A stretch of DNA of 10,260 nt from a virus. Lineage: Duplodnaviria > Heunggongvirae > Uroviricota > Caudoviricetes. Positions 1 through 10,260 of the stretch are shown here, piece by piece. The notes under the pieces were generated by a model that saw only the letters and a list, made by a program, of their open reading frames with translations, ran no database searches and was not told where the DNA came from. How positions within the stretch are numbered: the stretch's first letter is position 1; each line of letters opens with the position of its first letter. A program made the translations under genes and the position numbers. Location of the stretch: the IMG/VR virus record IMGVR_UViG_3300005660_000003, positions 1 through 10,260 of that record; one strand, given 5' to 3'.

Positions 1-7
1 GTTCTGT
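1..7 (+). other. R' box (GTTCTGT) of an upstream attC truncated by the window edge
   Basis: GTTCTGTGC (1-9) is the exact reverse complement of GCACAGAAC (597-605), the R'' flank of the next attC. Confidence 0.75.
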
Positions 8-159
8 GCCACCTTAGGTACATTACTTCCATCCTCCATGCAGTCTGCCCACATATTTGGCTTAAGTGTAAACCCATCCCAACCTATCGGGCGTTTATAC
101 CCTGTCTCTGTTTTTACTACGTCGTAATTCAACCCTAAACCATATGGAACTCTTTGCAT
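1..159 (-). CDS. Candidate 3'-truncated ORF (MQRVPYGLGLNYDVVKTETGYKRPIGWDGFTLKPNMWADCMEDGSNVPKVAQN...), runs off the window
   Basis: Hand translation: 53 codons with no stop from ATG 159 to position 1. The frame is open back to 357. No clear SD. Not in the track because it has no stop in the window. Confidence 0.3.
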   Translation of the reverse strand, partial: MQRVPYGLGLNYDVVKTETGYKRPIGWDGFTLKPNMWADCMEDGSNVPKVAQN

Positions 160-595
160 GACTGACTCTTTCTCTGAAGATTTATCGATTGCGGCACGTT
201 TCATGTGGAAACACCGAAACGAACCACAGTATTGGACATGGGAATCATTAACAGACCTAAACAAAGTCACAGACTCCCCTAATTTAAACCATGCTGTAGC
301 ATGGAACATTATTACGGTACTCGAAGGAAAGGGGTTCTTATTATCCTTTCCAGAATTTCAAAAAGACGGGCAAATTATCAAGTACCCATTTAAACTTCAT
401 CTTGGTGATCTAAAGGCGTGGCGTCGTATTAAACGATCCCCTTCTTGTTGCACATACTTAATTAATCTATGGGAAGATTTTTCGCCCAAACTCTATGCGT
501 TTATTATTGGTATCTTTTCATTAGCAATAGCATCTGTCATCGTTTACGCCCTACAACGCTACATCGATATCAAATGGCCAGCACCACCAAACTAA
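158..595 (+). CDS. Cassette 1 gene, conventional orientation; hypothetical 145-aa protein with a C-terminal transmembrane helix
   Basis: Stop TAA at 593-595 directly abuts the attC R'' (597-605), as in classic cassettes. Hydrophobic stretch LYAFIIGIFSLAIASVIVYAL. Confidence 0.75.
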   Translation: MTDSFSEDLSIAARFMWKHRNEPQYWTWESLTDLNKVTDSPNLNHAVAWNIITVLEGKGFLLSFPEFQKDGQIIKYPFKLHLGDLKAWRRIKRSPSCCTYLINLWEDFSPKLYAFIIGIFSLAIASVIVYALQRYIDIKWPAPPN

Positions 596-598
596 AGC

Positions 599-689
599 AC
601 AGAACAAAACGATGCACGCCGAGCAACGGTGGTTAGGTTATTGCTGTGGTTTGGTTACCTCCGTTGCCGGGTGATCGTCAGCGTTATTT
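599..689 (+). other. attC site 1 (91 bp)
   Basis: ACAGAAC-aaaac-gat[G]cac[G]ccg[A]gcaacgg ... ccgttgc-cgg-gtg-atc-gtcagc-GTTATTT. Confidence 0.9.
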
Positions 690-857
690 TGAAGACCCGG
701 CAGACCACCGAAACCAATGACGCGGAGTCATGATTTCAAGGCGTGGACCGCTGCCCGACTTCTTTCGCCCAAACAAAAACGCTGTCGTCCGAAAGTGGAG
801 ACAGAACCGACAGCCATAGGCTTGTGTGTACTCCACATCTTTCTGCACATGAACCAT
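684..857 (-). CDS. Cassette 2 inverted ORF, 57 aa (MVHVQKDVEYTQAYGCRFCLHFRTTAFLFGRKKSGSGPRLEIMTPRHWFRWSAGSSK); missing from the ORF track
   Basis: Hand translation. SD-like GAGAGGG just upstream of ATG 857. TAA stop at 686-684 lies in the bottom strand of the attC1 R' box. One CxxC motif. Confidence 0.6.
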   Translation of the reverse strand: MVHVQKDVEYTQAYGCRFCLHFRTTAFLFGRKKSGSGPRLEIMTPRHWFRWSAGSSK

Positions 858-872
858 GATTGCACCCTCTCA

Positions 873-963
873 AAATAACAACAAGTTGTACGCCGAGCAG
901 CGGGCCACCGTGACCCGCTTTACAAAGTGTCCCGCCGCTGCCGGGTAAACTTTGTCGTTCTAC
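873..963 (+). other. attC site 2 (91 bp)
   Basis: AAATAAC-aacaa-gtt[G]tac[G]ccg[A]gcagcgg ... ccgctgc-cgg-gta-aac-tttgtc-GTTCTAC. Confidence 0.9.
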
Positions 964-1244
964 GGATGCCGAACCAGTGAATACGTTTCGACGCTTGCTG
1001 AATACGCTTCCGCAATCCGTTTTGCAAACTTCTGACTCCTCGTTACGGTGCTTTGATCCACTACCGCCGACCATTGCCCGTTTCCGAAATCAAACCAAAA
1101 CCATTCCCCCTTGCTTTTATCTACAACTGCATACAACGTCAGTGGAGACAAAAACCGACCACGCTCAAGCCAACGGCCCCGCGCGTCCATCGCAAGCACC
1201 GCAGAACAATCAGATGCAGCCGAGCCGTCAACGTCGTTCGTCAT
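960..1244 (-). CDS. Cassette 3 inverted ORF, hypothetical 94-aa protein; N-terminus encoded by attC3
   Basis: SD AAGAAAGG 9 nt before ATG 1244, both inside the attC3 loop. TAG stop at 962-960 lies in the attC2 R' box. Aromatic-rich beta-like core (YAVVDKSKGEWFWFDFGNGQW). Confidence 0.7.
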   Translation of the reverse strand: MTNDVDGSAASDCSAVLAMDARGRWLERGRFLSPLTLYAVVDKSKGEWFWFDFGNGQWSAVVDQSTVTRSQKFAKRIAEAYSASVETYSLVRHP

Positions 1245-1305
1245 ATCCTGAAACCTTTCTTATGCAATGCAGGCTCGTCGGCCCGGCTGATCTGAGTCGT
1301 TATGC
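1201..1305 (+). other. attC site 3 (105 bp)
   Basis: GCAGAAC-aatca-gat[G]cagccg-a-gccg ... cggc-c-cggctg-atc-tgagtc-GTTATGC. Confidence 0.88.
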
Positions 1306-1842
1306 AGATACATCTTGACTCGGATACTGCGAACACAATTCACAGCGAAACTGACCACGTTCCTCGTCACTCAAATCCTTGCCGCAGTCTCCACATGTCC
1401 CATACCGCGACTTCTTGCACGTCGGGCAGTATCCAGCTCCGCGACCAGCACAGCCCTGACAGCCCTCCGCGTCTGGAAGCAGCGTTACAAAATCAGCCGC
1501 CATCCTGCGAACGGCGTTCGTAATCGCTTCGCGATATCGCTGCTTGTACTCATCGTTCATCCACCCGGCGACGACTTCAGTCAGCACTGATACGAGTCGT
1601 GTTTCTCCGCAGTTGGCTTTGTACGCTCCGTCTGCTGGCGGTGTCTCCAGTTTCCCATGAGGCACATCAATTAACTGCTCTCGCAGGTCTCGCATTGCTG
1701 CCGCAATTTCGTATTCCTGTGCGTCCATTGCGATCCTGATGGCGGCATCGAAGCTCTTAGCCACAAGTCTGGCTTTGGGCTTGCAGCTCGTCAGGCTATA
1801 CAGCGAAAACAGTAATCTGCCAATATCTTTTTGCGCACTCAT
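1300..1842 (-). CDS. Cassette 4 inverted ORF B, ~180 aa: UVR (UvrB/UvrC-type) motif plus four C-terminal CxxC pairs
   Basis: Start reassigned to ATG 1842, which forms an ATGA overlap with the upstream stop. AMDAQEYEIAAAMRDLREQL fits the UVR motif. CQGC, CPTC, CGDC, CELC. TAA stop at 1302-1300 lies in the attC3 R' box. Confidence 0.75.
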   Translation of the reverse strand: MSAQKDIGRLLFSLYSLTSCKPKARLVAKSFDAAIRIAMDAQEYEIAAAMRDLREQLIDVPHGKLETPPADGAYKANCGETRLVSVLTEVVAGWMNDEYKQRYREAITNAVRRMAADFVTLLPDAEGCQGCAGRGAGYCPTCKKSRYGTCGDCGKDLSDEERGQFRCELCSQYPSQDVSA

Positions 1843-2177
1843 GACTGGAACCCCACAAACGGACGGTTGCAATGATCACACCTGCCTGACGGCAGCCTGT
1901 AGCCAATACCGCAGGTCTGGCACACATACCCAGCCAGATCCTGAATCTCTTCAATCTCACGAAATGCTGCCCCCGCATGCACTGCTGGCTGTAACACTTC
2001 GCCGCTCGCAATCTCAAGCAGTCTGCGACGCATTACTGCGTGTTCTCGCATTAGCCTGTCAACATCTGCGAGCTTGACAAACTTGCCTGTTTTCGACTCC
2101 ATCACAAGCGAGCACTGATACAGCGGAAGCTGCATAACAATGCAATCAACCGGAGTTGCCGACGATGCGTTTTCCAT
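1839..2177 (-). CDS. Cassette 4 inverted ORF A, ~112 aa, C-terminal zinc ribbon (CQTC...CDHC); N-terminus encoded by attC4
   Basis: SD GAAAGG 8 nt before ATG 2177 inside the attC4 loop; alternative TTG start at 2183. Stop overlaps the start of ORF B. Confidence 0.7.
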   Translation of the reverse strand: MENASSATPVDCIVMQLPLYQCSLVMESKTGKFVKLADVDRLMREHAVMRRRLLEIASGEVLQPAVHAGAAFREIEEIQDLAGYVCQTCGIGYRLPSGRCDHCNRPFVGFQS

Positions 2178-2222
2178 GATCAAAACCTTTCACCGGCAAC
2201 CCGGTTATTGCAAGCGTTCGCC
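2132..2222 (+). other. attC site 4 (91 bp), canonical structure
   Basis: GCATAAC-aatgc-aat[C]aaccgg[A]gttgccg ... cggcaac-ccggtt-att-gcaagc-GTTCGCC. Top-strand extrahelical C and A correspond to bottom-strand G and T, as in classical attC sites. Confidence 0.93.
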
Positions 2223-2254
2223 GCCACACTCTTCTCTTCAATCTCTCTCTTCAT
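2180..2254 (-). CDS. 24-aa peptide MKREIEEKSVAANACNNRVAGERF translated through the right arm of attC4
   Basis: Strong SD TAGGAG 7 nt before ATG 2254. TGA stop in the attC4 loop overlaps TTG 2183 and lies 2 nt before ATG 2177. Confidence 0.5.
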   Translation of the reverse strand: MKREIEEKSVAANACNNRVAGERF

Positions 2255-2340
2255 TTTCTTCTCCTAAATAAAAGTTTTCAAATTCTGCACTAAAATTCCC
2301 GAATTCTTCGGACAAATCAAGCCCCTCATGCGATTCGCTT

Positions 2341-2430
2341 ATGGGATTTTTTCGTTTCACTCTGGGGATCGACATGGAGATTCTCGTCATCATTTGCTTG
2401 CTCATCTGGAATTACGTTTCAAGCGATTAA
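2341..2430 (+). CDS. Small hydrophobic peptide, 29 aa (MGFFRFTLGIDMEILVIICLLIWNYVSSD) or 18 aa from ATG 2374
   Basis: Hand translation. GGGGA precedes ATG 2374. Its TAA merges into the SD (TAAGGGG) of the next peptide. Confidence 0.45.
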   Translation: MGFFRFTLGIDMEILVIICLLIWNYVSSD

Positions 2431-2439
2431 GGGGTTACT

Positions 2440-2520
2440 ATGGCCGCAATACAGTTTCTCTTTGGTTTGGCCCTCGGGGTCTTTGTCCTTACCATAACGA
2501 AAGAAAAGAAACGACAATGA
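2440..2520 (+). CDS. 26-aa single-TM peptide with basic tail (MAAIQFLFGLALGVFVLTITKEKKRQ)
   Basis: SD TAAGGGG 5 nt upstream. Its stop overlaps the next start (ATGA 2517-2520). Confidence 0.55.
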   Translation: MAAIQFLFGLALGVFVLTITKEKKRQ

Positions 2521-2720
2521 ATTTCGCAAACCTTACACCAATGCCGAGCTCTTCAACTAATCAAAACGTTTTCATCAATCCTGCGTTCGTCACTCACGTT
2601 GGCAGTGATGCTGGCGGTACAACGATCATCTTCTTTAGCGGTGGCACGTCCACCACAATTGATGACACTCCGGCTCGTGTAGTCGAAGAATTGATTAAGG
2701 CCAGCAATTCATCTGTGTGA
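2517..2720 (+). CDS. 67-aa small beta-rich protein, FlbD-like pattern (true start probably 2517, not 2328)
   Basis: MNFANLT...VFINPAFVTHV...TTIIFFSGG...IDDTPARVVEEL resembles the FlbD-type pattern by eye. ATGA coupling to the upstream peptide. Confidence 0.6.
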   Translation: MNFANLTPMPSSSTNQNVFINPAFVTHVGSDAGGTTIIFFSGGTSTTIDDTPARVVEELIKASNSSV

Positions 2721-3034
2721 ACTGGCACATCAATTTTTGTCCCATTGTCTAGATGAGCAAAACAACTTTCACGCCTCCACTTTTGCCAGTATCCTTCGTT
2801 GGTGATTGCCACAATTCTACTCGGATCCACCACGCAAAAGGTATGTTCCACTTCGTGGACCTTCGCTTCTTCTGGTGCCTGCCCAAATTCATGGAATGTG
2901 CTTAGGTCATCATTCACATGATATTTCCCCCTAAACACTAAAAGCGGCGAACAAAGCGTTGAACCCGAGCTACCGGTGTCGGGTTCTGGGGTGGTTTGGG
3001 TTCCGGCGGCAGCCGGGTTAACTTGGTCGTTCAT
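2594..3034 (-). CDS. Cassette 5 inverted ORF (146 aa from ATG 3034, reading through attC5; alternative GTG start at 2917); C-terminal half FlbD-like pattern
   Basis: ATG overlaps the TGA of the upstream phage gene. SD AGGGGG lies 9 nt before in-frame GTG 2917. VVDPSRIVAI...CFAHLDNGTKIDV...DELLALIN. Confidence 0.65.
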   Translation of the reverse strand: MNDQVNPAAAGTQTTPEPDTGSSGSTLCSPLLVFRGKYHVNDDLSTFHEFGQAPEEAKVHEVEHTFCVVDPSRIVAITNEGYWQKWRRESCFAHLDNGTKIDVPVHTDELLALINSSTTRAGVSSIVVDVPPLKKMIVVPPASLPT

Positions 3035-3035
3035 A
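2946..3035 (+). other. attC site 5 (90 bp), distal end of the array
   Basis: GGCGAAC-aaagc-gtt[G]aacccg[A]gctaccg ... cggcagc-cgggtt-aac-ttggtc-GTTCATA. Confidence 0.88.
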
Positions 3036-3516
3036 AATATTCCTCTATCTGATCTAAGTCAGAAATTTTAATGTTAAAACAATCACACTTTACTTTAAAA
3101 TGTGTACCTTCTTCTATTTCATCCTTTTTAAGGAATTGGGCTTTCTCCATAAAAGCTACTACGGGGATTATACCCAAACAATAAGCTGTGGATAAGTCGT
3201 TGGTTATTCTATAAAAAGCATAATGACTACACTCTTTTTTCTTCACTTGGTACGCTGCAACTGTACAAGAATAGGAATCCAGTGGTCTCGAAGAGCACCT
3301 CTTAGCTTTAATATCAATACACCCTATTTTTGCGTGAGCAACATCATAATTATAAGAGTCTACTAGCTCTCCGCCATAAGTGTCGAGAAAAAGTTCCTCA
3401 GCAACCATACCAGCTAGCTCCCCATCACTACAAATCTTTTTACTATTTTCACCGATTTTGCTTGCTCTGGCTTGAGCTTTGCTCAAGACAGCTTCAGAGA
3501 CTTCTAATTCTGTCAA
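3031..3516 (-). CDS. Phage PD-(D/E)XK restriction-endonuclease-fold protein (putative)
   Basis: Motifs GMVAEE, NYD and CIDIKAK fit an E...D...(D/E)xK active site. TTG start with SD GGAGGAGG overlaps the recA stop. Confidence 0.6.
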   Translation of the reverse strand: MTELEVSEAVLSKAQARASKIGENSKKICSDGELAGMVAEELFLDTYGGELVDSYNYDVAHAKIGCIDIKAKRCSSRPLDSYSCTVAAYQVKKKECSHYAFYRITNDLSTAYCLGIIPVVAFMEKAQFLKKDEIEEGTHFKVKCDCFNIKISDLDQIEEYL

Positions 3517-4598
3517 GCTTCCTCCTCCCCATCTTCTTCCGGAGGAACAAAATCATAAGATATTGAATACTTTTCTATAAAATAATCCTTTATAATCTTT
3601 TGAAAAAGTTCCAAGTTTTCTTCTATTACAGCTACTGCTTTATCTGACCCCTGAGCTCTTATTTCTGTACCATCTGGTAACATAAAATAATACCACGCAC
3701 CCTTAGTGGTTAACAATCCTGTTTCTGGTAAAACTTCTAGGGCCTCCATAGCCCAATAAATACCCTCACCAAACCTAAGATAAGAATTAATAGGATTTTC
3801 CTTACTAACATAAGGGGCAAGTTTCTTATTATACGGCATTTGCCATTTAATTAGTTGGCCCTTCAGGCTTTCACCGTCTTTATTATTTAGTCTACTACCA
3901 TCCCAATCATACGGTTTGTGGCGAGCCTCTAAAACTATATCACATTCATATTCAAGTTTTACACCACCATCTGGCACTAATGGATCACCATACCCGGAGG
4001 TATTTGTGATAAAGTGTTGAATACCTATTACAATAGATCTAGTAGTACGAACAAGATTACCTATCTTTTTACAAAAATCCGCATTAAGTTTTGGGGTAGT
4101 GTCTCGCCTATTACCCTTAATGTCAATGTCGTTAAGAGTATCTTCTGGAATTATTTTAGAAAATGAATCTATTACATAAACTGCCCCTTTATACTTAGGA
4201 AGACCCATCATATCTTTAATGGTTTTGTATATTTTATCTCCAGATAAAACGGGGACACCCTCCTGAGATCTTAATATTAAAAATTTGGGATTATTTATAT
4301 CTAATCCTTTAATTTGAAAGTATTTTTCCCCAAGTAATCTACATTCAACATCGGCATAAATAACATATCTTCCTTGAGCTAGGGCGTTGGTCGCTATTTG
4401 CATAGCACACATCGACTTCCCGAGTTTAGGCGGGGTCCTAATAAGAACCAAACTTCCCTCTGGGATTCCACCTCCAAGTTTAGCATCTAGGGAAGGACCA
4501 ACAGATACAACGTATGGACTTGCTTTTTCTTTTGTAATTATACTAGCAGCACTTTGGAATAAGTTTTTATCTATAAGTGGTTTTTTGGCTTTAGCCAT
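3513..4598 (-). CDS. recA: RecA/UvsX-family recombinase (phage type)
   Basis: SLDAKLGGGIPEG, P-loop variant TPPKLGKS, YADVE, Walker B VYVIDS, DGGVKLEYECD, C-terminal KGAWY and QG motifs, acidic tail; 361 aa. Confidence 0.9.
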   Translation of the reverse strand: MAKAKKPLIDKNLFQSAASIITKEKASPYVVSVGPSLDAKLGGGIPEGSLVLIRTPPKLGKSMCAMQIATNALAQGRYVIYADVECRLLGEKYFQIKGLDINNPKFLILRSQEGVPVLSGDKIYKTIKDMMGLPKYKGAVYVIDSFSKIIPEDTLNDIDIKGNRRDTTPKLNADFCKKIGNLVRTTRSIVIGIQHFITNTSGYGDPLVPDGGVKLEYECDIVLEARHKPYDWDGSRLNNKDGESLKGQLIKWQMPYNKKLAPYVSKENPINSYLRFGEGIYWAMEALEVLPETGLLTTKGAWYYFMLPDGTEIRAQGSDKAVAVIEENLELFQKIIKDYFIEKYSISYDFVPPEEDGEEEA

Positions 4599-4954
4599 TA
4601 ATTCTTCTTTCTGAAGAGTGGTGAAGTTTCACATGGGGTGACTTGTGGGTTTTGTTTAGCTATGTGCTCTCTTAGGTTTTTCTCATTTGTAAGCCGAGCC
4701 TGCTCGACCTCTATTAAATCTGGCAACTTTTTAGCATATAAAGACCAACACCAAGATTCTTTTCTTATTGTGTTCCATATAGCTTCCTCACTATAGGCCC
4801 TGAATAATTTTGCTGCTATTATAGTTTGCTGTTGGTACTCCTTTTTATATTTTGGTAATCTCCAAAACGCCTCCGGAAGAGTTATCCCTTGTTTTTCATA
4901 CTTTCTCTTTATTATATAAGATACTAGCATTTCTCTCTGGGATGATTCCCCCAT
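4598..4954 (-). CDS. Hypothetical phage protein (118 aa)
   Basis: ATG start; TAATG overlap with the recA start; in operon. Confidence 0.75.
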   Translation of the reverse strand: MGESSQREMLVSYIIKRKYEKQGITLPEAFWRLPKYKKEYQQQTIIAAKLFRAYSEEAIWNTIRKESWCWSLYAKKLPDLIEVEQARLTNEKNLREHIAKQNPQVTPCETSPLFRKKN

Positions 4955-5236
4955 TTATTCACTCCTGTAAATTCCCCTGTGCTCATCAGAGGCCTGAGTT
5001 GGTTGTGTGGGAGCTGGTTCCTTATCAATGTCTGCAGTCATTTGATAAACTTTTTGCCCATTCTTTAGGGTAATCTTAGAAGCACCCAACCTATTTGCTT
5101 TATTAGTTTTATCATAGATCTCTTTGATCAGAGCTTCTGACAAATCTAATTCTTGGGAAATTTCCGCAATACTTTTACTTCCGGCGAAACTACTAATATA
5201 AAGCTCGTCTGCCGGGTTCAATTTTTTTCGACTCAT
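4955..5236 (-). CDS. Hypothetical protein with possible N-terminal helix-turn-helix
   Basis: SIAEISQELDLSEALIKEIY is HTH-like. ATGA overlap with the upstream gene. Confidence 0.65.
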   Translation of the reverse strand: MSRKKLNPADELYISSFAGSKSIAEISQELDLSEALIKEIYDKTNKANRLGASKITLKNGQKVYQMTADIDKEPAPTQPTQASDEHRGIYRSE

Positions 5237-5559
5237 ATTTGTCCGCTCGCTTGCATTGCTTGTGTTGTTAGTTTGTAAAGCCCCTCATGCTTAGTAGTTA
5301 AATACTTGACATAATTTTCAAAAATATCCCTAGTAACCTTAATAAAGGTTGGATTAATTAAACTTTTATTCATCTTGGTTTCATGATGAATTGGTTTAAG
5401 CCCCTCTACTCGTATGTAGTGCTTAGTGTTATCGTCCGACACCACCTCTTTTGCAACTATATTGTTCGCCACCTTTGTTTCATCACCATTGATATCATAC
5501 AAATAGTAAAAACTTTCATTGTGTTTTCCACCATAAATAAATTCTACTTGATCTACCAT
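5233..5559 (-). CDS. Hypothetical phage protein (108 aa; start reassigned to ATG 5559, MVDQVEF...)
   Basis: ATG lies 1 nt after the upstream stop (5561-5563). The track start at 5664 would overlap another gene by ~100 nt. Confidence 0.7.
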   Translation of the reverse strand: MVDQVEFIYGGKHNESFYYLYDINGDETKVANNIVAKEVVSDDNTKHYIRVEGLKPIHHETKMNKSLINPTFIKVTRDIFENYVKYLTTKHEGLYKLTTQAMQASGQI

Positions 5560-5560
5560 T

Positions 5561-5788
5561 TTAAATTTTTCTCTTATAAAAGACTCTTGGTTTACACATA
5601 ATTTTATTTTCATCAATAAATTCGAAATAATATTTATCATTACCAGAAAGCTTGGGGTACCCAATGAAGGTTTCTATTATTTCTTTACCACACACACACT
5701 GGACCTTAAAACTTACAATCTCTTCTCCACCGGAGTCTATGGCATACAACAACTCTTCTTGACACTTACTACAGGTTATAACGCTCAA
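5561..5788 (-). CDS. Small zinc-ribbon protein (CSKC...CVCG)
   Basis: Cys motifs; TTG start in a TTGA overlap with SD GGGGG. Confidence 0.7.
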   Translation of the reverse strand: MSVITCSKCQEELLYAIDSGGEEIVSFKVQCVCGKEIIETFIGYPKLSGNDKYYFEFIDENKIMCKPRVFYKRKI

Positions 5789-5997
5789 GTGGCCCCCAAT
5801 TCTTTAATTGCCGCTAATATAGCGGCAACTTTTGCCGCCACTTCTTCGGGCGAGCCCGGCTTTATTGTAATTAAGAAATTTTTTAGTCCAGCTTCCCGTT
5901 GGGCTTTTAGACCCACACTTTTTCCTAATTCTCCAGTGGTTTCTACCTCATGAACATATACGGATATAGATATTATTGCTTGATGGGCTTTACTCAA
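5785..5997 (-). CDS. Hypothetical protein (70 aa)
   Basis: TTGA overlaps at both ends; in operon. Confidence 0.6.
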   Translation of the reverse strand: MSKAHQAIISISVYVHEVETTGELGKSVGLKAQREAGLKNFLITIKPGSPEEVAAKVAAILAAIKELGAT

Positions 5998-6200
5998 AGG
6001 GATTTTCTTTCTACTAATTCATATTCTATAATGTCTATTTTTGACGCAGAAATATTATTATTATCTTTACAAAGCTTTCTTACTCTGCGGGCTTCAGCTA
6101 GTTCTTCAAACACTTTGGCGGACTTTTGTTTTGTTGACCACCTTTTGTTTTTGGTAAAAAAGTTATTTCCGATACGTTCTCGTATCATGTATACGTTCAC
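5994..6200 (-). CDS. Hypothetical protein (68 aa)
   Basis: GTG start in a GTGA overlap with the upstream stop. Confidence 0.65.
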   Translation of the reverse strand: MNVYMIRERIGNNFFTKNKRWSTKQKSAKVFEELAEARRVRKLCKDNNNISASKIDIIEYELVERKSL

Positions 6201-6523
6201 AATATTCCTTTCTCAATAAAATCCCGCATTTGTTTATTTGTATTTATGGCCTGAATCTTCTGCGTTCTGGATTGTGCATTTAATTTTTCTTCTGCCCCAA
6301 CACCAAAAGCCCGCTCCCTAGATAGTGGATTACGACGGTTGTTTAATTCTAGTAGTGAACCTACCGTGCGTGGGTCACACAGCTTAGAAATAATAGGCCC
6401 AGAAATAAGACGTTCTAAATCCCCATTACAGATAGGGCACTTTTCGTAGATTTCTGTATGATTTTGCAAGAATTCTATATCTCCACAAGATTCGCAGAGG
6501 TATTCTTTAGTTACTAGTGCCAA
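6197..6523 (-). CDS. FmdB-family zinc-ribbon putative regulatory protein
   Basis: EYLCESCG...EKCPICNGDLERLIS matches the FmdB-type CxxC-CxxC pattern. SD AAGGG before TTG. Confidence 0.75.
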   Translation of the reverse strand: MALVTKEYLCESCGDIEFLQNHTEIYEKCPICNGDLERLISGPIISKLCDPRTVGSLLELNNRRNPLSRERAFGVGAEEKLNAQSRTQKIQAINTNKQMRDFIEKGIL

Positions 6524-6557
6524 TTTAATTTTCCCTTAATTGAATTGTTTTTCTTAT

Positions 6558-6570
6558 TACTGTTACAGTA
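6558..6570. promoter_or_regulatory. Intergenic palindrome TACTGT-T-ACAGTA, possible operator
   Basis: Perfect 6-bp inverted repeat in the 68-bp gap upstream of the FmdB-like gene. Confidence 0.3.
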
Positions 6571-6591
6571 GGCATCTAAAATAGAAACGTG

Positions 6592-6927
6592 TTATGAAAC
6601 AATACAACCTTTTTCAAGATTCCCAATATAATCCGGTCCTTCGCCGTAAGATATAGCTATATTACGTGTAGCCCATAACGGTTGAAGATTTGTATAATGG
6701 AAGCAAATTTTCTGTTGCTCGGGATCTGAAAGATCAAAAGATGCACAAGGTTTTATATGATCTAAGTGCCATCCTTTGTCTCCGTGATTTTTCCAAGTCA
6801 TACCCTGAGTAAACTTTGACTCAATGTGTTCAATAAAAAATGATATATTACAACTTAATAAATTAAACGTTAAGTCCGATTTTGAGGCTTTATGATTTTT
6901 TAAGATTGCTCGTATTCTTTCTCTCAT
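6592..6927 (-). CDS. HNH-type (endonuclease VII-like) homing endonuclease domain, short and possibly N-terminally truncated
   Basis: [40 protein letters not shown] are hallmark motifs of this viral endonuclease family. No SD before the ATG. Confidence 0.75.
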
Positions 6928-6948
6928 CTTCTATAATATACTTCTCTG

Positions 6949-6962
6949 TTTTTGATCAAAAA
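6949..6962. promoter_or_regulatory. 14-bp perfect palindrome TTTTTGATCAAAAA overlapping a weak -35-like element upstream of the HNH gene
   Basis: Directly read. On the minus strand: TTTTGA-N17-TATTAT, then ATG 5 nt later (possible leaderless start). Confidence 0.3.
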
Positions 6963-6970
6963 ATTTATTT

Positions 6971-7576
6971 TCACTGAGTTTCCAGCTCTGCAAGGTACTT
7001 GAGGCAGATCTGAGACCACGTTTCAAATTCATCGATTTGCCCCACCAATTCTGACGGTGGTGCGAATCCTGCGTTTATCATCGACTTTTCACGGGGCTGA
7101 ACTTTGGGTTTGTCCAAATTGAAAATATGAACTATCCCAAGATGAACTTTCCCAACTTCTGTTTCATCGTCGTTGATTAACCCAACGCACTTTTCTGTCC
7201 AGTCTGCCTGAATCTCCACCTCTTCCTCAATCTCCCGTTTCATTCCTTCAAGATACGGAGACTGCACACCATCGAGGTCCAGTGTTGAGACATGGCCGCC
7301 GACGCCGACCGATCGCTTGGCGTGCAACCGCGCTTCTCCCTGAGCCGTTCCACGCTGATAGAAGAAGATCTCGCCGTTGCAACGAAACACGCAGTACGGG
7401 ATCAGCTGCTTGAAGGTGGGATCCTGCTCCATCTCAGGTCGAGGCCGATAGCTGGCGTGTTGCGGATCCAGAATCACCTGCAGGTAACGCTCGATGTCGC
7501 TGCTGAATCCCTGAAAATGACCGACCTGAAGAAAGACGGGAGTTGGAATGACCAAAACACGCTCATTTAACGACAT
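6971..7576 (-). CDS. NUDIX-family predicted phosphoesterase (YmaB/COG4112-like), cellular-type sequence
   Basis: [20 protein letters not shown], Nudix box [28 protein letters not shown] clearly higher than the flanks (spot counts 40-63% vs 23-30%). Confidence 0.88.
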
Positions 7577-7982
7577 ACTTTACTCCATCTAAAATCAAAG
7601 AGCTTATGCTTCTATGGTCTACTTGACGAATATTGTTGGTTGGCAAATCTAAATCAATCACTATACTTCTTCCCAAAATTGGTTCGCTCTTAATAAAATG
7701 CCCACGCAAGGATCTGTCAACTCCGTCCCCTTTAAGAAAAGTAACCGTAAATGGGCGAATTCCAGCCCCCATTAATTTTTCTACCACATGAGTGATGGGG
7801 CACTTTTCTTCATGGTTAAATTCGTCTGCTGACCACACATTGCCTATTTCTTCAAAGTAGTCGAGTGGGCACTCATATTCTTTTTGCCCACCTAGGTCTA
7901 ATACGGTGATAGCATCCTCAGACACCTTTGATATCTTGTAATAGCCCATTTCGCACACTATATCATTTTCTTTAATCTTCAA
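7563..7982 (-). CDS. Hypothetical protein with C-terminal WYL-like/DUF2693-type SH3 barrel (tentative)
   Basis: [17 protein letters not shown]...VIDLD...[13 protein letters not shown] pattern. SD TAGGAG before TTG. Confidence 0.55.
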
Positions 7983-7992
7983 GCTTGTTCTC

Positions 7993-8760
7993 CTAAAATT
8001 TAATTCCAGTTAATGATCCAATATATGTTTCACCCATTTGTTGGTATGGCGTTGTAGTCATTTTTAATCCTTCAAACACAGGTTTTTCATTAATCCATAT
8101 CCCCTTACTTTTATCTATAAATAAAATCGCCGCCAATACATCATGCATAGCTTTAGTTGGATCTAATTTATTAAAAAATGCCCGCACCCTTTGGTTCTCA
8201 GGAACCCATATCTTTTCAAGATGAGCCTTTGTAAACCCATGACAAACATTTTTACCAACAAAGTATTTAGACTTTATGTTTTCGGAATCTACAATTCTTT
8301 TAAAATCTTCTCTAGCACCAGAAGGATTGAATGATTGTACAGAGTGAAGATTTTTGAATTTTTCTAAAGGTCTGATGCTTTTGGGGCAATGCCCACCCTG
8401 AAAGAAGAGTTCGTTACAAGATAATTTATTTCCAATGTTTTTATGTGGGCCAATTATTAAGGCCCGGTCTACAGTTAGATCTAGCTCAGAAAGATCTTCT
8501 GTTGGCAATAAGCAGTTTCCAGAAAAATCTTTATGCTTACCATAAGAAAACTTTTCGTTATATTCCACATCTTTTGAATTATAAAGCTTGGGATATGAAA
8601 TATCGTATGAATTTATTATAGTGGTCAATATCTCATTTTGCTGTAGATGGCCGGGAGATAAACCAATTATATTTGGAACAGCATTATTTTCAATTAAGTA
8701 CGCTAAAGCAATAGCATCATCTGGATCATGTCCTAAGTCTGTATGTAGTAATATTTTCAA
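7993..8760 (-). CDS. Inosine/uridine-preferring nucleoside hydrolase family protein
   Basis: N-terminal TDLGHDPDDAIAL (DxxxDxDD Ca-binding motif), SFNP and MHDVLAA motifs. Confidence 0.75.
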   Translation of the reverse strand: MKILLHTDLGHDPDDAIALAYLIENNAVPNIIGLSPGHLQQNEILTTIINSYDISYPKLYNSKDVEYNEKFSYGKHKDFSGNCLLPTEDLSELDLTVDRALIIGPHKNIGNKLSCNELFFQGGHCPKSIRPLEKFKNLHSVQSFNPSGAREDFKRIVDSENIKSKYFVGKNVCHGFTKAHLEKIWVPENQRVRAFFNKLDPTKAMHDVLAAILFIDKSKGIWINEKPVFEGLKMTTTPYQQMGETYIGSLTGIKF

Positions 8761-9155
8761 AACTTATACCTCTTACTGGTGTCCGAAGTTGACTTGTCAA
8801 CTTCTATTGTTTCTAGTATATCCTTACTTAACCTGCTTATATTAAAGTCACCCCTACCTAATTCTAAAATGTGCGTAGATGAAGCCACCACCTTTTTCGC
8901 CGCGTCTAGCGGGGCATCCGCATCATACATTTTACCAAATTTATTCGGCTTTAGGTTTTTGCTTCCTTCAGTGGCATCCCAAATTATTGGTATGATTTCT
9001 ACACCTATCTTTGAGCTGGCTGCGAATTTAGCAGCCATCTTATGATCCAAGGAAACAAATTTAATAAAACCCTCAGTTTTAGCAACTTCTTCTAAGGTTG
9101 AACGCAGTTCTGCGTAATCTTCGAATTCACGATCTATGGAAAGGGCCACTTTCAA
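8757..9155 (-). CDS. Degenerate SLOG-superfamily (DUF2493/YspA-like) protein
   Basis: MKV...REFEDY.EL, PIIWD, NKFGKMYDADA follow the DUF2493 pattern, but the GSR, GAD and RN motifs are absent. Confidence 0.5.
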   Translation of the reverse strand: MKVALSIDREFEDYAELRSTLEEVAKTEGFIKFVSLDHKMAAKFAASSKIGVEIIPIIWDATEGSKNLKPNKFGKMYDADAPLDAAKKVVASSTHILELGRGDFNISRLSKDILETIEVDKSTSDTSKRYKF

Positions 9156-9937
9156 GTTTTGTACCTCTTCATAATTTCTATTAGAAATGGATCACGCACA
9201 ATATCATTTTCATGAAACTCTACGTAACCCACATCTCTCATTCCATAAAATCTATCTACTGCATCATCTAGACCACAAAGTTCCCCTCTATTAAGTCTTA
9301 TATCTATTTGATCTGGGTCGCCCATAATAACTAGCTTACTGCCTTCCCCAATTCTAGATATAAAACTTTTCATTTCGCCGACTGTGGTGTTTTGACTTTC
9401 GTCTAGAATACATATACTTCCTATTGGATTACCAGTTGAGTCATATCTTCCGAAGGTAGTCCCCCTAATATAGTTAAGAACCACTTCTTTAATTATACCA
9501 TTTTCAGTTAGATATTTACACCCTTCTTTACCAACTAGTTTTACTATATTATCATAGAAATGAGCAAAGTGTACGGCAGTTTTGTCACTAACCTCTCCGG
9601 GCAAATGTCCGAGACCCTTACCGGAGGTAATTTCAACAATGGGCTTAGTAAGAAAAATTTGATCTATGTTAAAAGAGGTGTCCTTGACTATGTTTATGGC
9701 TGCCGCTAAAGCACAAATGGTCTTCCCCACGCCAGCAACACTACGAACAAAAGTTATACGATTATCTAATATAGTATTATACAAGTCTCTTTGTTTGTTG
9801 TTTTTAAACTTGAAGATCAGCTTGGGTTGAGGACGTGTTGGAACATATTCTTGACTTGGGGCCTCTATTGCTCTACCATGAGCTGTTACGTGACGAGTTT
9901 GTGTTGGTTTTGGTCTTTTTGTTCTATGTCTGGTCAA
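9152..9937 (-). CDS. phoH: PhoH-family ATPase (phage type)
   Basis: SVAGVGKT P-loop, LGHLPG, YIRGTTF, ILDESQN, SRIGEGSKLVIMGDPDQID, DIVRDP. Confidence 0.92.
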   Translation of the reverse strand: MTRHRTKRPKPTQTRHVTAHGRAIEAPSQEYVPTRPQPKLIFKFKNNKQRDLYNTILDNRITFVRSVAGVGKTICALAAAINIVKDTSFNIDQIFLTKPIVEITSGKGLGHLPGEVSDKTAVHFAHFYDNIVKLVGKEGCKYLTENGIIKEVVLNYIRGTTFGRYDSTGNPIGSICILDESQNTTVGEMKSFISRIGEGSKLVIMGDPDQIDIRLNRGELCGLDDAVDRFYGMRDVGYVEFHENDIVRDPFLIEIMKRYKT

Positions 9938-9947
9938 GGTTATTCCT

Positions 9948-10259
9948 TTAAGGAAAGGGGTTGGTTATTATATTAGTAAACACTACTGGTGGTTTTAATT
10001 CACGGTCTTTATGTCTAACTAAAAGTTTAATATCTTTATATTTTCTAAAGTCTAGCCTTCGTTTGGCAAATTTTGTTTCGCATTCTTTTTTAAGCTTTAA
10101 AAAATCTACATCTGATATGTTGCTAAAATAATCGTACACATTCGCATCAAATTCAGTAGCGTAAGCCATAGCCAAAATGTGACTTTTACGCAAAGAAGCT
10201 GCGGGTTTAAAATCTGGCGAGGCTAATTTACTAAATAGTACAGGACTAGGAACCCACTT
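9948..10259 (-). CDS. Hypothetical protein, 5'-truncated by the window edge
   Basis: The frame stays open upstream of the track start at 10193 (KWVPSPVLFSKLASPDFKPAASLRK...). Its stop merges with the phoH SD (TAAAGGA). Confidence 0.7.
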   Translation of the reverse strand, partial: KWVPSPVLFSKLASPDFKPAASLRKSHILAMAYATEFDANVYDYFSNISDVDFLKLKKECETKFAKRRLDFRKYKDIKLLVRHKDRELKPPVVFTNIITNPFP

Positions 10260-10260
10260 T

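Follow-up and report, generated by a model that had tools for sequence, protein, structure and literature searches.

Five imperfect hairpins with the anatomy of attC, the recombination site of integron gene cassettes, lie in the opening 10,260 nt (hereafter the window) of an IMG/VR virus record of 117,774 nt (IMGVR_UViG_3300005660_000003; estimated completeness 67%). In two of these, attC3 (E3; 1201-1305, minus strand) and attC4 (E4; 2132-2222, minus strand), the terminal loop holds a Shine-Dalgarno (SD)-like tract followed by an ATG that is in frame with the gene behind the hairpin. Conservation of the tract, the ATG and the frame suggests that these loop ATGs are probably the starts that are used, in which case attC would double as a portable translation-start module within mirror-image cassettes. 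Integron cassettes usually consist of a gene followed by its attC, and are expressed from a promoter on the integron platform. In the window the two stand in the opposite order, and the translation start apparently comes from the recombination site itself.

On the plus strand, AAACCTTTC is present at 1251-1259 and 2183-2191, both times inside a terminal loop. Read on the minus strand this becomes GAAAGGTTT, which in attC3 is separated by CAGGAT from an ATG at 1244-1242 (full site GAAAGGTTTCAGGATATG), and in attC4 by TGATC from an ATG at 2177-2175 (full site GAAAGGTTTTGATCATG). Both copies of the motif-N5/6-ATG arrangement described in the earlier note were confirmed, and they open minus-strand open reading frames (ORFs) of 94 amino acids (aa) (ORF3, 960-1244, MTNDVDGSAASDCSAV...) and 112 aa (geneA, 1839-2177, MENASSATPVDCIVMQ...). 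The distance from tract to start, 6 nt in attC3 and 5 nt in attC4, fits the bacterial initiation region (5-10 nt), and GAAAGA or AAAGG, spaced in the same way, precedes the phage's own genes, as in the recA-like gene (CAGAAAGAAGAATTA-ATG) and phoH (TTAAAGGAATAACC-TTG). Could the shared 9-mer be a meaningless match between two loops? There are exactly two copies of GAAAGGTTT in the 10,260 nt, where shuffled sequences are expected to hold 0.18 and reached two copies in 3 out of 200 cases. When the five loops themselves are shuffled, 4% of the shuffles share a 9-mer among some of them, so the identity alone is only marginally significant, and relatives share no more than a 5-6-nt core. The motif derives its weight from that core, GAAAG[GA]-N5-10-ATG, because it recurs in related loops that are otherwise unalignable, amounting to at least nine distinct cassettes. 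With both window copies on the same strand and at the same ATG distance, we find coincidence hardly credible.

The conservation of SD and ATG among homologous attC loops, on which the earlier note had made its proposal depend, is seen both in diverged geneA cassettes and in attC3-type hairpins that precede three unrelated proteins. All nine full-length geneA homologues found have an in-frame extension ahead of a conserved VMQLPLYQC, with the loop ATG in frame (DNA read for seven loci). The loops of these cassettes have diverged past alignment, yet each retains a purine tract before its ATG (GTGAAAGGTTTTGATCATG in the window, TTCGAAAGGGATAGAATG in L004, AACGAAAGGTCCTTGCGATG in L010 and AACGAAAGACATTCACATG in L015), with GAAAG[GA] 6-9 nt ahead of the in-frame ATG in four further diverged versions. 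The extension measures 14, 16, 15 and 14 codons, respectively, and is always in frame. Among close relatives and reads covering the attC4 region, one-base indels are confined to the spacer between tract and ATG (GATC, GAATC, or an additional T after 2179), and natural variants of the tract preserve its purine run (T2188>C, giving GAAGGG). The body of geneA is coding, with 37 out of 49 differences from close relatives at third codon positions; the start codon is kept in frame with a gene under purifying selection.

In attC3-type hairpins, AAAGGT-N8-9-ATG stands before three proteins unrelated to one another, all of which carry MT(N/K)(D/T)VDGS..SDC as an in-frame fusion. The attC3 tract is kept as CACGAAAGGTTTCAGGGTATG in L020:1035 and as CAAAGGTAATCGCGATG in L003:973, and the peptide of 15 codons that attC3 encodes from its loop, 3' arm and R'' box (1200-1244, minus strand; MTNDVDGSAASDCSA) recurs as an in-frame fusion with two unrelated proteins (MTKTVDGSNGSDCSA and MTKDVDGSAASDCY, in L003:973 and L020:1035). 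For the 55-aa member of the three unrelated proteins, the loop ATG is the only in-frame ATG. The same build was found in L019:124, L019:1478, L019:1812 and L020:797, and in L003:2797 with GGGAGGA-N7-ATG. Counted over the family (27 distinct hairpins with 31 in-hairpin ATGs, the motif being AAAG[GA] or GGAGG 5-10 nt upstream), a long ORF is opened by 12/12 motif-bearing ATGs compared to 3/19 of the others (Fisher p = 3e-6). It should be noted that the loop start is not universal: it is found in two of the five window hairpins and in about half of the family. Other cassettes start at an SD that follows the hairpin, as for E2 and probably E5, where this SD is strong, or start upstream and read through it; E0, E5 and a solo hairpin in L023 lie entirely within ORFs that start upstream.

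So do ribosomes actually begin in the loop? Both cassettes have an in-frame ATG further downstream: for geneA at 2133-2135 (minus strand), inside the R'' box GTTATGC (MQLPLYQC...), and for ORF3 at M19 (1190-1188, MDARG), leaving a protein of 76 aa. These may be the starts, with loop ATG and tract as untranslated parts of attC or as a minor start. Several observations point that way, or at least weigh against a start in the loop. AAAGG would pair with the anti-SD over 4 nt only (AAGG); some relatives have GAAAGA instead and one has GGGAGGA; and the purine tract is predicted to be partly paired (P(unpaired) 0.30 and 0.42). The sole non-cassette homologue of ORF3 has a different N-terminus that lacks the attC peptide. 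In the methylase cassette at L003:2079, a C5-methylase motif (LDLFCKAGG) directly follows the R''-box ATG of GTTATGC and the loop ATG is out of frame, making the R''-box ATG its most likely start. Furthermore, the 14 codons that attC4 contributes from its loop and 3' arm (2136-2177, minus strand; MENASSATPVDCIV) bear no signature of protein-level selection. Close relatives show 0-3 differences in these 42 nt versus 49 in the 294 nt of the gene body, a conservation well above that of the body's synonymous sites; the changes lack third-position bias, with all positions affected in distant relatives, and three out of four among close relatives are non-synonymous. With changes spread equally over the codon positions, the attC-encoded peptide shows no amino-acid-level selection, and codon-position analysis of the extension does not separate coding from hairpin constraint. 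On this comparison, the peptide is a by-product of the hairpin, and conservation extends no further than the frame, the ATG and the purine tract.

What speaks against the downstream starts is that frame and ATG persist in every diverged version of geneA despite codon-sized changes in length, that the motif-bearing loop ATGs without exception open long ORFs, and that several cassettes have no other early ATG. The downstream ATGs lack an SD, and that of geneA is held in a helix of -45 kcal/mol. In the non-cassette homologue of ORF3, similarity begins four residues upstream of M19. RNA fold predictions, by which the hairpins are very stable (-27 to -50 kcal/mol), leave the loop AUG mostly unpaired (0.59-1.00) in 10/12 loop-start hairpins, including 0.59 for attC3 and 1.00 for attC4, while the R'' end of the stem reaches only 0.09-0.29 and the geneA ATG located there about 0.2. 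A distant homologue that could mark the ancestral protein start is not available for geneA, since an exhaustive search of representatives returned one full-length cluster along with zinc-ribbon fragments; no relative of it turned up in IMG/VR contigs, and JGI metagenomes yielded just three loci. Taken together, we consider initiation at the downstream methionines unlikely, and take the loop ATG as the probable start of both genes.

Alternatively, GAAAG could be kept for reasons of DNA, as a purine-rich element of the GAA type that lies in the loop of the bottom strand and lends stability to the recombining hairpin, with the proximity of an ATG as a secondary matter. A conserved 5'-GAA-3' and an enrichment of purines have indeed been described in the unpaired parts of the attC bottom strand (Nivina et al. 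2016, PMC5027507), and several loops of the present family read C-GAAA-G or GAAAGnnTTTC, which could form a small stem. The arm pattern of E3 allowed us to look at bacterial counterparts, as it occurs in at least 120 genome contigs, mostly of Planctomycetota. Among 43 bacterial attC sites with the same arms, the element is missing and none combines an SD-like tract with a loop ATG that opens an ORF, compared to 12/27 in the window family (p = 2e-6). These bacterial sites form hairpins of ~81 nt, and the longer ORFs beside them lie on the top strand in 68/83 flanks. The module therefore accompanies the reversed gene orientation, which fits a translation signal and not a recombination signal. 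Moreover, the element always lies 5-10 nt before an in-frame ATG, its position in the loop follows the ATG and not the stem, and it matches the ribosome sites of the phage's own genes. Although both roles could coexist, a purely DNA-based explanation seems to us quite improbable next to a translation start in the loop.

All of this presupposes that the hairpins are attC sites, and that their polarity is understood. The hairpins of the window qualify as genuine attC sites, and their type is that of Planctomycetota. Together with 22 relatives, all five are imperfect palindromes bounded by AAC...GTT (R''/R' boxes), with L boxes inside, and cassette ends are complementary (GTTATTT/AAATAAC, GTTATGC/GCATAAC, GTTCGCC/GGCGAAC). 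Extrahelical bases occupy one arm only: T..C..C in attC1 and attC2, T (or a G.T pair) and C in attC3, and T and G in attC4. The latter reads ..GGCGAA|C GC TTGCAAT AACCGG GTTGCC..loop..GGCAAC[T]CCGGTT[G]ATTGCA TT GTTATGC, spans 83 nt from AAC to GTT, and has its extrahelical T and G separated by 6 bp on the arm facing AAC; in the E4 family, 7/15 pairs of the stem show compensatory changes on both sides. For attC3, with boxes GCATAA|C (1305-1299) and GTTCTGC (1207-1201) and 97 nt from AAC to GTT, the assignment is based on its fold, the bulges of its 3' arm, and an arm type as in attC sites of Planctomycetota, and a close copy exists at L020:1035. An integron integrase would be the enzyme that recombines these sites. 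Rfam contains no family that matches the window hairpins.

In attC sites, the two or three extrahelical bases sit on the bottom-strand arm that faces 5'-AAC-3', with the G nearest to the R box, the T furthest from it, and a 6-bp stem in between (Nivina et al. 2016, PMC5027507). The bulges of the window hairpins are on the arm opposite AAC on the minus strand, i.e. the strand that carries the genes, and because they face the AAC arm there, the minus strand is the attC bottom strand. As a control, the aadA1 cassette of plasmid R100 reads, in gene sense, GTCTAAC-AATTCG-TT[C]AAGCCG[A]CGCCGC-TTC-GCGGCGCGGCTTAA-CTCAAGC-GTTAGAT, with the extra bases on the AAC arm. The two share the hairpin anatomy, the G|TT crossover and a coding sequence that reaches or enters attC, but the attC of aadA1 comes after its gene and has its bulges on the AAC arm in gene sense, while in the window the hairpin precedes its gene and has the reverse polarity. 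As such, where a canonical cassette has a top-strand gene with attC downstream, these cassettes have bottom-strand genes with the hairpin upstream of their own gene. We also considered the opposite assignment, with the minus strand as top strand and canonical genes that stop in R'' and start just past the crossover; it was rejected on the bulge rule, the aadA1 control and natural breakpoints. The polarity that the earlier note had assumed, with the plus strand as top strand and inverted genes, is thereby borne out.

These breakpoints also reveal which hairpin belongs to which gene. In two close relatives of the geneA cassette, L019 and L021, whose gene body is ~83% identical at the nucleotide level, the match to the window sets in at the C of AA|C, on the hairpin's 5' side, and upstream of it the three are unrelated (..GGCGAA|C, ..GGCATAA|C and ..CCACATAA|C). 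Likewise, three contexts, different from one another up to TTAGAA|C, GGGTAA|C and TGCTAA|C, share one and the same E3-like hairpin together with its 55-aa gene. As identity is lost at AA|C, on the hairpin's 5' side, the hairpin moves with the gene behind it. Of the earlier suggestion that each cassette carries its own translation start, this much stands: hairpin and start travel with the gene wherever a loop start exists. It fails as a statement about every cassette, given the hairpins noted above that have no such start. Recombination between these sites appears to have left a trace as well. In one sludge DNA run (X10), a contig lacks cassettes 2-4 (1,533 nt), position 679 in E1 being joined to 2213 at the end of E4 through an AGCGTT common to both. 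This junction is what attC x attC recombination between E1 and E4 at G|TT should yield, and it shows cassette-level polymorphism within the phage population. In other runs, contig ends cluster at hairpin borders.

The array occupies an island of 45-58% GC (~600-3035) with hairpins of 82-97 nt from AAC to GTT, followed at 3031-10260 by AT-rich DNA (32-40% GC) with minus-strand genes that include the RecA-like gene and phoH. Independent assemblies from at least eight samples yielded the same phage with the same array, and on longer contigs the array is flanked on both sides by phage genes, including GP88 and DnaB, which rules out an assembly chimera. No tyrosine recombinase was found in the 117.8-kb record, itself 67% complete (no PF00589 match), and the intI and attI that stand beside the array in a complete integron are not there. 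Given the phage genes on both sides and the missing PF00589 match, 1-3035 is an integrase-less integron-type cassette array (CALIN) in the genome of a virulent-type activated-sludge phage. Megablast of the window against GenBank phages gave no match, and Pfam and PHROGs gave no function for any cassette protein beyond a weak zinc-ribbon match. Contigs from RNA libraries span the array; they give neither strand nor ends, nor proof of transcription or translation.

CALINs in virulent and temperate phages have been published (Qi et al. 2023, PMC9892861), and they are likewise attC arrays with small ORFs inside a phage genome and no integron integrase; one relative's array includes a DNA methylase cassette. 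The part of that paper considered here treats them as typical bacterial cassette arrays, with no mention of bottom-strand genes or loop starts, and in our literature search, of which the coverage was partial and which leaves absence unproven, no description of inverted cassettes with a start in the attC loop was found. The attC sites of Planctomycetota sedentary chromosomal integrons (e.g. in the genomes behind L049 and L094, whose IntI matches TIGR02249) have the same arms (ATCAGCCGG...CTCGGCTGCAT), bulges and AAC/GTT boxes as those of the window. They differ in being ~81 nt long, with short loops that lack SD and ATG, canonical genes, and arrays that begin beside intI, whereas the loop-start attC sites of the window family measure 83-112 nt, with genes on the opposite strand and without a nearby integrase. 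In two complete Planctomycetota genomes that carry this attC type elsewhere, an IntI above the curated TIGR02249 cut-off directly adjoins similarly built, canonical attC-like arrays; with the strict pattern no attC was found within 1.5 kb of Planctomycetota intI genes, and it was the wider flanks that gave these attC-like arrays.

A working SD and ATG within a recombination site is known from attI1 of class 1 integrons, where ORF-11 and ORF-18 aid the translation of cassettes that lack a start (review PMC8876359). In this respect ORF-11 resembles attC3 and attC4, but it is part of the platform, is available to the first cassette alone and works by means of a short peptide that provides coupling, whereas the module of the window is located in attC, is carried by the cassette and is fused in frame. 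A closer analogue of ORF-11 is a 24-aa leader ORF at 2180-2254 (minus strand; SD TAGGAG, ATG at 2254), which reads through the 5' arm of attC4 and ends in a TGA 2 nt before the loop ATG. It is missing from the other contexts of the geneA cassette.

We propose that, with the gene on the attC bottom strand, the mRNA would hold hairpin and then gene in one mobile unit. The enlarged terminal loop would present a GAAAGG tract, like those of the phage's own ribosome sites, 5-6 nt before the ATG. Initiating in the loop, ribosomes would pass through the 3' arm and the R'' box into the gene, thereby adding 14-15 residues of which the sequence is set by the hairpin and not by the protein. A cassette would in this way bring its translation start wherever it is inserted, independent of its neighbours and not buried in a stem. 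In the case of attC4, the 24-aa leader ORF could open the hairpin and deliver ribosomes, as a coupling route. If this is true, it would account for the expression of cassettes that lack a 5' untranslated region at whatever point of a phage operon they insert, and gene callers and integron finders that look for ORFs between attC sites would set such starts wrongly. The open question of cassette origin would then extend to a second class of cassette, and the reading also points to host integrases of the Planctomycetota type shuffling phage accessory genes. It is quite possible, although we would stop short of calling it probable, that phages of Planctomycetota-rich habitats keep a mirror-image cassette pool of their own, in which the attC loop evolved into one portable unit of recombination site, ribosome-binding site, start codon and a short, disordered tag for the N-terminus. 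A host integrase could then insert any gene joined to such a hairpin into any phage operon, where its translation would begin immediately, and the read-through hairpins E0, E5 and L023:11787 would follow the same principle as in-frame linkers.

As for the remaining features of the array, attC1 (E1; 599-689) and attC2 (E2; 873-963), both on the minus strand, have no loop ATG; the cassette gene at 684-857 has GAGAGGG-N8-ATG after hairpin E2. ORF3, of which the identical protein is encoded on 16 contigs, ends with a TAG (962-960) within the attC2 box GTTCTAC. GeneA, with a C-terminal zinc ribbon for which Pfam gives only a weak Zn_ribbon_LapB match, shares its cassette with geneB (1300-1842, minus strand; 180 aa), the start of which overlaps the geneA stop (ATGA) and the stop of which (TAA, 1302-1300) lies within the attC3 box GCATAA|C. 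The second gene after geneA varies, with 180 aa in the window, 73 aa in L003-L009, L020 and L021, 100 aa in L019 and none in L010; where present, it always has a 4-nt stop/start overlap with geneA. The final hairpin of the array, attC5 (E5; 2946-3035, minus strand), abuts a phage ORF (3031-3516). An ORF from an ATG at 3034 reads through it, and the cassette gene more likely starts at a GTG at 2917 (AGGGGG-N9-GTG).

A sixth hairpin, E0 (L023:11238-11316), closely resembles E5 and lies just outside the window, and its repeat splits several assemblies at the same base. It is read through in frame by an ORF of 180/230 aa, and the E0 and E5 peptides (NDQANPDAAKTVPTPETEDGGSGSAYCSPL and NDQVNPAAAGTQTTPEPDTGSSGSTLCSPL) and the domains behind them are paralogous. 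Similarly, the solo E3-type hairpin of L023 (11787-11873) is located entirely inside a 119-aa ORF (L023:11754-12113) that starts at a phage-type SD (TAGGAGAAACTTATG) 30 nt upstream, so that the whole attC is translated (..NDQDQPGTANDLPHETAEPRDSAASDCYA...). Another solo attC-like hairpin (G000:C1:33329-33417, equal to L014:2330-2418; AAATAAC...GTTATTG), together with a matching box at L014 ~2098-2104, bounds a cassette of ~310 nt with 46-51% GC that adjoins nrdB/nrdA-like genes. Its minus-strand ORF ends with a TAA in the box, the same mirrored layout, and the sequence following its hairpin (GTTATTTGCGAGGTGTGGCGTG) is homologous to the cassette that adjoins geneA in L015.

At the start of the array, the record begins exactly at GTTCTGT (1-7), a box complementary to R'' of attC1. 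A plus-strand ORF of 145 aa (158-595), with a hydrophobic C-terminus and in canonical orientation relative to attC1, and a minus-strand ORF (MQRVPYGL...) start back to back at 157-160 on GCATGA, overlapping by 2 nt with zero intergenic space. Within the 58 nt of the left arm and loop of E1 (597-654), G>A changes (C>U when read in gene sense) number ten in an RNA-library contig (X5), and the other arm has none. Over the whole stretch this run shows 14 G>A versus 2 C>T, where two DNA runs lack such a bias; the excess may reflect a strain variant, deamination or editing. Finally, at 6971-7576 a minus-strand ORF of 201 aa, to which no Pfam family was assigned at E<=0.01, stands out at 51-57% GC amid the AT-rich phage DNA.

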